Source of the DNA: Escherichia coli
Lineage (GTDB): Bacteria; Pseudomonadota; Gammaproteobacteria; Enterobacterales; Enterobacteriaceae
Strand: one strand, 5' to 3'
Assembly (NCBI RefSeq): GCF_009931435.1
Contig: NZ_CP043414.1
Length of the DNA: 64,000 bases
Made by a program: the position numbers. Shown here in pieces: positions 6,001 to 9,000 of this stretch (within the stretch, counting starts at the first letter, position 1; each line of letters starts with the position of its first letter).

Positions 6001-9000
6001 CGCCTAACCAGTTTGCACCAATGACATTAGCGGTTTCTCCTGCCTTGAAGGGGGTGACAGTCATAAACGCTGCGACAGAGAGTAAGCCAACGGATAACGA
6101 ATCAACTTTCCGTTCTTCGGCCAACCCCATCCCAATAAAAAAGGGGGTCATGAGTGACATAATGCCCAGCGTGCCATGATAAGCACTGTCACCGACGACG
6201 GTGAAGGCGCTTAAGGTTTTTATGGTCGATGGTTCCAGTCGGACGCCTAATGAATAAAAAAAGGAGCCTTCGCCAAAATCTAAAAAAACGCTATTAATGA
6301 GGACAAATAACGTACCGGCTAACGTTAATGGCATCATACGGATAAAACCGTTTTTTATTGCATTGACGTGAGGTTGTTTCCCTAATTTAACTGCAAAAGG
6401 AAGAATGAGTTTTTCAAGTAACGCCATCACTCCGGGCATAAAAATATCCTTATATACCGATTAATGTATCACTGCGACTTTGGTTTTATTAATATCCTGT
6501 TGCTATGGTTACTTTTGCTCTTTTTTTATTATGGCGATAGCTGATTTTAGAACACCTAAGCCATCAATTTTTCCATATAACATTGAATCAATAACTTCCA
6601 CTGGCTTTCCTGGTAATAAGCTTTGGATCTCTGATTGCATGTAAGCAATTTGAGGTCCCAATAATATAACATCGGCTTCCGGCCCTTTCTCTGCGGCAAC
6701 AGATTCGGAGAATGCTTCGATAATTACTGGCACATCATATTTTATCGCCTGCACTTTCATTTTTGACACCAGCAGTGATGTTGACATTCCCGCTGAACAA
6801 AATAAGTATATTTTTTTCTTTTCCATAGGGACTCCAGATATATTACGTAATAATATATTTGTCATGCCATGAATGGCATATGAGGCGACTTTAATTAAAA
6901 AGGCACGGATGTTTATATTGATTTCCTGAATGTCGTCTTTTGGTATTAATCTCAAAAATTTCAGGAGCCATTGAATAATCTGGTTTATAGGATTGAATGT
7001 CAAGAGAGTGAAATTGTGGGCGTGTTGTAATAAAAATAGCACGGCTTTCGGTAGGTTTCTTTTTTAGCGGAATGAAAAGTACAGGCAAAATGGTAATTGA
7101 ATAAATTAACGTTTTTTCAATAGATTACGTTTTTTTCTGCCTACAGGAATGAAAAAAACAACAATCTAAAAATACTTTAGATATGTGAGAGTTATCACTT
7201 ACTTTTCGTGGGGAAAACGGGGAAACACAGTCTCCCCGTTTTCCGTTCATGCAAGGCCGTCAAGTCACCGGTGCCGGGTTAAACACCGCCAGCTGGTTAT
7301 GCAGTCCCCATTGATCTGAGAAGGTTTTCTTCTTCCCGCTGGCGACGTCGAGAATAAAATGGAACAATTTCCAGCCCACCTCTTCAATAGTTTCTTCGCC
7401 GGTAGCGATGGTGCCCGCATTAATATCCATTAAATCAAACCAGCGGTTCGCCAGCTCGGTGCGGGTCGCCATTTTAATGACGGGTACCGCCATCAGGCCG
7501 TACGGCGTGCCGCGACCGGTCGTAAACACTTGCACGGTAATCCCTGATGCCACCTGTTGCGTGCCACAGACAAAATCGCTGGCTGGCGTCGCGGCGTAAA
7601 TTAATCCGCGTTTAGTCGGGCGTTGACCGGGCGATAGCACTTCAACAATTGCGCTTTTACCCGATTTAGCAATGGAGCCGAGAGCCTTCTCCACTACGTT
7701 TGCCAGACCGCCTTTCTTGTTGCCCGGAGAAGGGTTGGCGCTGCGGTCGGTTTTTCCCATATTGAGATAGTTATCGTACCACTCCATCTCCTCCAGCAGC
7801 CGTTTGCCGACCTCTTCGTTCACTGCGCGTGGTGTCAGCAGATGGATCGCGTCACGCACTTCTGTGACTTCTGAAAACATCACCGTTGCGCCGCAGCGCA
7901 CCAGTAGATCAGACGCATACCCAACCGCCGGGTTTGCCGTTACGCCAGAAAACGCATCGCTGCCACCGCACTGCATGCCGACAACCAGTTCTGAAGCCGG
8001 ACAGGTTTCTCGCTGACGTTGATTCAGTTTTTGTAGATGGCGTTCGGCGACCTGCAAAATATCCTCGACCATGGACTGAAAACCGACATGCTTTTCATCC
8101 TGCAAACTGACAATGCTGGCGCTTTCTACTGGAATAGCTTGCACATCATCCGTTCCAGTCAGCAGGCGCTCAGGCTGCAACTTTTCACAACCCAGACCAA
8201 TCACCATTACTTCGCCGCCAAAGTTAGGGTTCAGCGAAATATTGTGAATGGTACGAATAGGCACAACTGCCGCCGGTGCGTTAATCGCCACGCCACAACC
8301 GTACAAATGATTCAGCCCCACCACGCCATCGACGTTCGGGTATTTCGGTAGCAGATCGCGTTCAATGATTTTTACTACATAGTCCACCACGCCTGCCACA
8401 CAGTGGACGCTGGTGGTGATGCCGAGCAGGTTTTTGGTGCCCACGCTGCCATCGGCATTGCGATAGCCCTCAAAGGTGTATCCTTCCAGTGGCGGTAAGG
8501 GGGCCGGGACTTTAGTTGCCAGTGGCAGCGTGTGTAACGGTGGCGCTTCCGGTAGTACAACCATTGATTCGTCGATCCAGCTTCCGCGTGGGATTGCGCG
8601 CACGGCGTAACCAATCACTTCACCATAACGAATAATTTCACCATTAGCCGGAATGTCCAGCAATGCGACTTTATGCCCCTGGGGAATATGTTCAATTAAT
8701 TCCAGCCCATCCGGAAAACGCGTTCCTGCTTTCAGGCCATTATCATTAACAATAATTGCCACATTATCTGTGTCGTGAACTTTTATATAAAACGCAGTTG
8801 GCGTTTCTTGTCTGATTTCGATGTTGGCCATTGTGCAATATTCTCCAGCCAGGGGTTATTAAAATGAGGACCTGGTCTCATTTAAAAATAAATGACTTCA
8901 TTGGGTGAAATAAGAATGTCAGGAGTTTAAACGCAGAAATGTGATCAATGTCAATCATTTCAGGGATTGCAGTGCCGCCCGGCAGGGTAAAGCGCAAATC

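Follow-up and report, generated by a model that had tools for sequence, protein, structure and literature searches.

A short palindrome resembling the binding sites of the cAMP receptor protein (CRP) is located between garD, encoding galactarate dehydratase, and a phosphotransferase system (PTS) operon in a 64,000-nt stretch of the Escherichia coli contig NZ_CP043414.1 (here called the window). Comparison with related loci suggests that this palindrome is the distal-most conserved element of a control region of about 230 bp, and the probability that it is a functional CRP site of this PTS operon is estimated at roughly 0.5. Binding of cAMP-CRP to window positions 7184-7199 as such is considered probable. 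What we infer here from the DNA sequence is that CRP binds, where transcription starts, which elements are operators and how the site acts. The elements on which the argument rests are the following.

7260-8831, minus strand: garD, galactarate dehydratase
7212-7244, minus strand: hairpin with a 15-bp stem and A4 and T4 runs at its sides, found by folding
7184-7199, plus strand, centre 7191.5: CRP-like palindrome TGTGAGAGTTATCACT, found by consensus match
7003-6975, minus strand: sigma-70-like promoter TTGACA-17-GATTAT, matching at 10 of 12 positions, top position weight matrix (PWM) score in the gap
6509-6826, minus strand: PTS EIIB, with which the operon begins (annotated by RefSeq in a 99.8% identical genome; NCBIfam)

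The CRP-like palindrome and its conservation

The palindrome agrees with TGTGA-N6-TCACA at nine of the ten half-site positions, the sole mismatch being the final base, and its half-sites are identical to those of the CRP site at lac P1 (TGTGA-N6-TCACT). As read from the sequence, all four half-site G:C pairs contacted by CRP (G5, G7 and their symmetry mates) are present. The palindrome lies inside the segment 7180-7201, to which a sequence-only reading of this DNA had drawn attention as a strong CRP-like site with a 9 of 10 match, and the geometry given there was reproduced. The gap between garD and the PTS operon (6827-7259, 433 nt) is AT-rich, with 35% GC compared to approximately 50-55% GC in its flanks; the end of the site is 61 nt from the garD stop (about 60 nt in the sequence-only reading), and the EIIB ATG at 6826 is 358 nt away from the near edge and 365 nt from the centre (about 360 nt).

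CRP-like sites were scored by consensus mismatches and shuffles, with no weight matrix. Six sites with at most one mismatch were counted in the 64-kb window against 1.9 expected, a number reached by 5 of 100 shuffles. As 1.9 matches are expected per 64 kb, a single one somewhere in the window is unremarkable. For the 433-nt garD-EIIB gap alone the chance of such a match is P ~0.011, and a match of CRP quality inside this gap itself is not expected by chance.

Among the PTS-type copies of the locus (an alignment of six sequences from three sub-lineages), both CRP half-sites are invariant in all six sequences, and the site varies at spacer position 7190 alone. Variation in the gap is lowest over 7200-7146, where 3 of 55 nt are variable compared to 16% for the whole gap, and the longest invariant run (7189-7168) begins within the CRP-like site.

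Closer relatives of the locus were reached via its Gfo/Idh/MocA protein (79-83% identity). Two of them, L066 and L068, share the Gfo-ROK genes and a convergent AgaR-like gene with the window, but an ATP-binding cassette (ABC) transporter consisting of a binding protein, two permeases and an ATPase replaces the PTS, GH4 and YdjC genes (L066:3152-10992 and L068:197-7862 compared to window 1-7259). The flanks of L066 are 96% identical to E. coli and thus Escherichia-like, while L068 stems from another genus, is approximately 73-77% identical to E. coli over the ROK gene, the AgaR-like gene, agaR and kbaZ, and has garD immediately upstream. Upstream of the ABC operon, the DNA can be aligned with the window gap between the CRP-like site and a point about 40 nt beyond the promoter, with a three-way identity (window, L066, L068) of 37.5% over the aligned control region, far above that of random AT-rich DNA. 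At the same aligned position on the minus strand, the window has AGTGATAACTCTCACA, L066 has GGTGATTCCGCTCGCA (8/10) and L068 has AATGATAATGCTCACA (8/10). Three-way identity is found in seven of the ten half-site columns compared to 37.5% region-wide (binomial estimate, P ~0.04), and the G:C pairs at CRP-contacted positions are all kept in the L066 site, while one of four is lost in that of L068. Measured from its centre, the CRP-like site precedes the -35 element by 188, 188, 189 and 191 nt in four sequences, the intervening sequence being diverged. Other conserved blocks are a T-run just downstream of the CRP-like site, TTTTC at 7155 and TTTC at 7078. The PTS and ABC versions part in the leader near 6930, below which the leader is PTS-specific. 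One control region and one Gfo-ROK/AgaR-like backbone thus appear to have been reused for ABC and PTS uptake modules.

The association of the site with the PTS operon, considered in the sequence-only reading, was supported, in that the site is assigned to the control region of this operon and not to garD. The hairpin at 7212-7244, located between the garD stop and the CRP-like site, folds at -25.1 kcal/mol (z = -3.6) and is the putative garD terminator; a strict terminator scan passed over it because its T-run comprises merely 4 T. In some 2,930 complete E. coli genomes the match to the query breaks off exactly at the garD stop codon, and in K-12-type genomes garD is followed by a different terminator and then by prlF-yhaV. 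Since the gap DNA is absent after garD in most E. coli genomes, it is not garD DNA, and the whole garD-EIIB gap is part of the accessory locus described below, forming its outer end. It is very improbable that the palindrome serves the garD side, be it as a protein roadblock, within the terminator region or as promoter of an antisense or short plus-strand RNA. The site does lie only 12 nt beyond the garD hairpin, and L068 likewise has a garD terminator followed by the site. However, the DNA upstream of the site in L066 is unrelated and contains neither an adjoining garD nor the hairpin, and the site is still kept; most E. coli, including K-12, have garD without this sequence; and the promoter scan found no plus-strand (antisense or garD-directed) promoter-like match in the gap, where a plus-strand transcript would, moreover, run into the hairpin. 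A small RNA gene in the gap was ruled out, as neither a terminator-like site nor structure was found inside it.

A second CRP-like site is located at the opposite end of the locus, outside the window, and the window itself contains five further matches of the same quality (positions of the last three relative to genes were taken from the annotation of strain RMDEC465 by offset).

L001:2143-2158: second CRP-like site TGTGACCTTCTTCACT, 9/10
16611-16626: 9/10 match, tdcR-tdcA intergenic
44300-44315: 9/10 match, exuT-uxaC intergenic
16107-16122: 9/10 match, between yhaB and the tdcR 3' end
47570-47585: 9/10 match, just inside ygjV, after uxaA
57626-57641: 9/10 match, inside fadH

The second site lies approximately 285 nt upstream of the ATG of the AgaR-like gene, within the locus and about 55 nt from the point where K-12-type DNA begins. 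GF4-3 and L066 retain its half-sites, while L067 has an 8/10 match. For the promoter of the AgaR-like gene there is no single conserved candidate, and the best candidates would place the second site at approximately -217 to -237. A 9/10 match is thus present in each of the two non-coding control regions of the locus, while window positions 1-6826, covering the operon and part of the repressor gene, contain none, which raises the confidence in both CRP sites. The matches at 16611-16626 and 44300-44315 are probably the known CRP sites of the respective operons, both regions being CRP-controlled, and serve as an internal positive control. With two of the other five matches in the tdc and exu regions, matches of this quality in catabolic control regions of the window tend to be real.

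That the palindrome is fortuitous or functionally neutral, perhaps binding CRP weakly with no effect on the operon, is rather unlikely in view of these comparisons. The number of matches expected per 64 kb is consistent with such a palindrome, as are its non-canonical distance from the only conserved promoter, its absence from distant ABC-type loci and the fact that conservation among PTS-type copies alone is not significant. Against it stand the low chance of a match in this particular gap, the constant position and spacing of the palindrome in two lineages so diverged that little more than a third of the region is identical three ways, and a second, equally good site in the other of the two non-coding control regions of the locus. 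The sequence-only reading had also considered a remnant; this was not supported, the palindrome being kept at the same aligned place in every PTS-type variant and in the aligned ABC-type relatives L066 and L068, even where the upstream DNA differs.

Promoter, leader and candidate operators

The only promoter-like element conserved across the lineages is TTGAC(A/T)-17-GATTAT, with the CRP-like site 188-191 nt upstream. The hexamer blocks, TTGAC(A/T)TTC at 7003 and GATTATTCAA at 6980, are conserved, while the sequence of the 17-nt spacer is diverged in L066 and L068, and this combination is the signature of a real sigma-70 promoter. The operon promoter is therefore most likely the predicted element at 7003-6975 and not one beside the CRP-like site. 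Transcription would start near 6968, giving a leader of approximately 142 nt and placing the centre of the CRP-like site at about -223.5. A metagenome scan with the exact pattern TTGACWTTC-N14-GATTATTCAA returned 16 loci, all of them unrelated chance matches.

A CRP-dependent promoter immediately downstream of the site, starting at 7150-7100 with a leader of approximately 280-330 nt and perhaps acting beside the proximal promoter, is improbable. In its favour, the 55 nt following the site are the best conserved part of the gap among the PTS-type variants; weak -10-like hexamers occur there as well (TAGATT at 7168-7163, TATTTT at 7174-7169), and the -35 and -10 elements of CRP-dependent promoters are often poor. 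These hexamers would, however, set CRP at -35.5 or -29.5, which are not canonical distances. The essential A2 of TAGATT is a T in GF4-3, the aligned bases in L066 and L068 form a T-run without a -10 element, and the would-be leader is unstructured (z = +0.93 for 7160-7020) and without a match in Rfam. More generally, PWM and consensus scans of the gap gave no usable -10-like hexamer that would centre the palindrome at -41.5 (class II) or at -61.5, -72, -82.5 or -92.5 (class I). The distal promoter with a long leader (~330 nt) suggested in the sequence-only reading is consequently not upheld, given the lack of a -10 element at class I or class II spacing and the T-run downstream of the site in the relatives. 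The catabolite control suggested along with it is a reasonable reading because the site is conserved, but the adjacent distal promoter that was part of the suggestion is unsupported.

Between the CRP-like site and the EIIB gene, several further elements were found that may act as operators.

7146-7155, minus strand: TTTTCATTCC, first copy of a direct repeat and a candidate operator element of the AgaR type; L066 and L068 keep its TTTTC
7069-7078, minus strand: TTTTCATTCC, copy 2, 77 nt from copy 1; TTTC conserved three ways
7045-7059, minus strand: GAAACCTACCGAAAG / GAAACCnACCGAAAG, candidate AgaR-like operator at -91 to -77 of the predicted start
6864-6879, in the PTS-specific leader: palindrome ATGCCATTCATGGCAT with perfect 7-bp arms, which are invariant among the PTS-type variants

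The block 7059-7045 is the most conserved part of the control region in the window, L066 and L068. CGAAAG/CTTTCG motifs are also found upstream of the AgaR-like regulator gene and in distant ABC-type loci. The control regions of operon and regulator both contain blocks rich in TTTC/CGAAAG, with CACAA(T/A)TTCAC as the sole common 11-mer, in a comparison made without a defined operator consensus. A weaker promoter-like match, ATGCCA-16-TATATT, is located 25-50 nt before the EIIB ATG and overlaps the palindrome ATGCCATTCATGGCAT. This palindrome could be an operator or a second promoter arriving with the PTS module.

A structured leader or riboswitch was ruled out: Rfam gave one weak match in 6700-7400 (E = 0.32, below the gathering score), and the folding z-score of the leader (6968-6815) was -1.17. 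The EIIB ATG at 6826 is backed by the RefSeq annotation, by an NCBIfam equivalog match and by a GGAG 6 nt upstream. A longer EIIB reading frame from a GTG at 7042, open for 72 codons (6827-7042), would span the promoter, has no homology support and is likely spurious.

Position of the site and possible mode of action

CRP sites of class I and class II in the scheme of Busby and Ebright, including that of lac, are centred between -41.5 and about -93. A centre near -223.5 would make a classical class I or class II contact with RNA polymerase impossible. By sequence, the palindrome is a typical CRP site; its position is neither that of class I nor that of class II. Only three features are unusual: its conservation near -224, a second site that matches it and the use of one control region for both ABC and PTS modules.

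In the reading favoured here, the palindrome would be a cAMP-CRP site at the distal edge of the ~230-bp control region, which feeds one sigma-70 promoter at 7003-6975. This promoter would transcribe a chb-like operon comprising the EIIB, EIIC, GH4, YdjC, Gfo and ROK genes, and the AgaR-like protein of the DeoR family presumably represses it via the TTTC/CGAAAG elements between CRP site and promoter. CRP bound at about -223.5 may then have an auxiliary or architectural role, bending the DNA at the upstream boundary of a repressor complex that spans several operators. Such a bend would modulate repression or its relief and thereby couple expression to the carbon status of the cell.

A wider version of this proposal includes the second site. 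The CRP sites at the opposite outer ends of the locus, each approximately 215-235 bp upstream of a promoter, would both serve a repressor complex of the AgaR type as architectural elements that act over a long range; this extension is doubtful. The same holds for its mechanistic part, according to which CRP, bound well outside the class I range, would bend the DNA where a wrapped or looped repressor-DNA assembly ends. The spacing of the garD-end site is held within 3 bp across genera.

Several observations weigh against a functional CRP site of the PTS operon. A position of about -223.5 lies beyond the range of known direct CRP activation. Promoter and start were predicted from the nucleotide sequence alone, and the best promoter PWM score is matched by 6% of random gap copies. 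The support from conservation is modest, with just three independent lineages, and among the PTS-type variants the ten named positions would be invariant by chance with P = 0.17, which taken alone is weak evidence. The ABC-type loci of Rahnella, Serratia and Affinibrenneria have a recognisable promoter, but the DNA upstream of it is not alignable, and no CRP-like site with at most two mismatches was found in these loci. The counterpart of the second site is degenerate in L068, and in both L067 and L068 the second site is located between the agaR stop and a terminator-like hairpin. This doubtful context tempers the confidence added by the second site.

The accessory locus and known systems

The control region belongs to a seven-gene accessory locus, in which an AgaR-like repressor gene is convergent with the six-gene PTS operon. 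Besides EIIB, the window contains the following genes of this locus.

5078-6439, minus strand: PTS EIIC, ChbC-like, 68-77% identical to canonical ChbC
3648-5000, minus strand: GH4 6-phospho-glycosidase
2877-3635, minus strand: YdjC/ChbG-type deacetylase
1578-2834, minus strand: Gfo/Idh/MocA oxidoreductase
648-1559, minus strand: ROK kinase
4-603, plus strand: AgaR-like DeoR-family repressor gene, 3' part, with its start outside the window

The AgaR-like repressor matches NF040755 with 365 bits (cut-off 260) and contains the Pfam domains HTH_DeoR and DeoRC. The locus contains no EIIA gene, no chbA and no chbR. With EIIB and EIIC encoded in the operon, EIIA would be needed from elsewhere, e.g. 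ChbA. In strain RMDEC465, EIIC is annotated as frameshifted, while the window copy is intact.

The gap together with the PTS genes is present in 3 of 5,426 complete E. coli genomes, and the PTS-type locus is also found in the draft genomes of Escherichia sp. E3659 and E4385, always beside garD. Over a 901-base query spanning the gap, RMDEC465 is 99.8% and the GF4-3 copy 88% identical to the window. Strains carrying the locus include GF4-3 (NZ_CP053258) and R32_14_1F (NZ_CP074749), and the Gfo cluster P0136 has 586 members. Since the locus is present with garD upstream in the diverged L068, the locus between garD and agaR is old and has been lost by most E. coli. A literature search on this locus and its regulation returned nothing.

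The prlF-yhaV toxin-antitoxin genes are gone in RMDEC465 and the prlF promoter region is left beside the locus (L001:1940-2087 compared to L057:2352-2500), while GF4-3 retains prlF and a yhaV pseudogene. This toxin-antitoxin module has been lost secondarily in some carriers of the locus. The ABC version in Rahnella, Serratia and Affinibrenneria adjoins a divergent GH123 gene, the AgaR-like gene and agaS/kbaY-type genes, and in a Rahnella-like locus a kbaZ-type gene is nearby as well. The GH123, agaS and kbaY-type neighbours hint at a substrate containing N-acetylgalactosamine.

With lac P1, the window site shares the 16-bp architecture, the half-sites and the place upstream of an enterobacterial sugar-catabolic operon. 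It differs from lac and from class I and class II sites in general in being located approximately 223 bp from the only conserved promoter, with no -10 element at a canonical distance.

The chitobiose operon chbBCARFG is reportedly controlled by NagC, ChbR and CAP. The window locus has paralogous EIIB, EIIC (68-77%), GH4 and YdjC/ChbG genes, and in both systems a CRP-like site is located upstream of the EIIB gene. In contrast to the window locus, where the regulator is AgaR-like and convergent, canonical chb loci contain chbA and the AraC-type chbR, and their CRP-like site is 171-209 nt from the ATG compared to 365 nt in the window. No significant similarity was found between the window gap and canonical chbB upstream regions. 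As the regulators differ, the DNA is not homologous and the site is placed differently, the control region of the window is not a member of the canonical chb type. The closest EIIC relatives outside Escherichia belong to ordinary chbBCARFG operons and were unusable for footprinting of the gap.

cAMP-CRP also acts on the aga/gam promoters. The aga/gam regulon resembles the window locus in its AgaR-family repressor, its TTTC-rich candidate operators and its neighbouring chromosomal position. The agaR-kbaZ intergenic region of L066 contains a 9/10 CRP-like site approximately 108 nt from the ATG, a conventional distance unlike that of the window site. AgaR represses the E. coli aga/gam regulon by binding to three promoters, according to PMC3668189, citing Ray and Larson 2004.

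The mode of action proposed for the window resembles that at araBAD, nagE-nagB and deo in that a CRP site well upstream of the core promoter is combined with several sites for an oligomeric repressor. In those systems CRP is bound far upstream or inside a repression loop, within ~100 bp of the promoter or between mapped operators, whereas no operator was found upstream of the CRP-like site in the window.

For annotation, the operon promoter is most likely located at 7003-6975, and the entire garD-EIIB gap is to be assigned to the accessory locus. If the site works, an uncharacterised accessory sugar locus of rare E. coli and cryptic Escherichia lineages would be under catabolite control, and the conserved position near -224 would offer a natural system, easy to mutate, for testing how CRP acts from afar together with a repressor of the DeoR/AgaR family.

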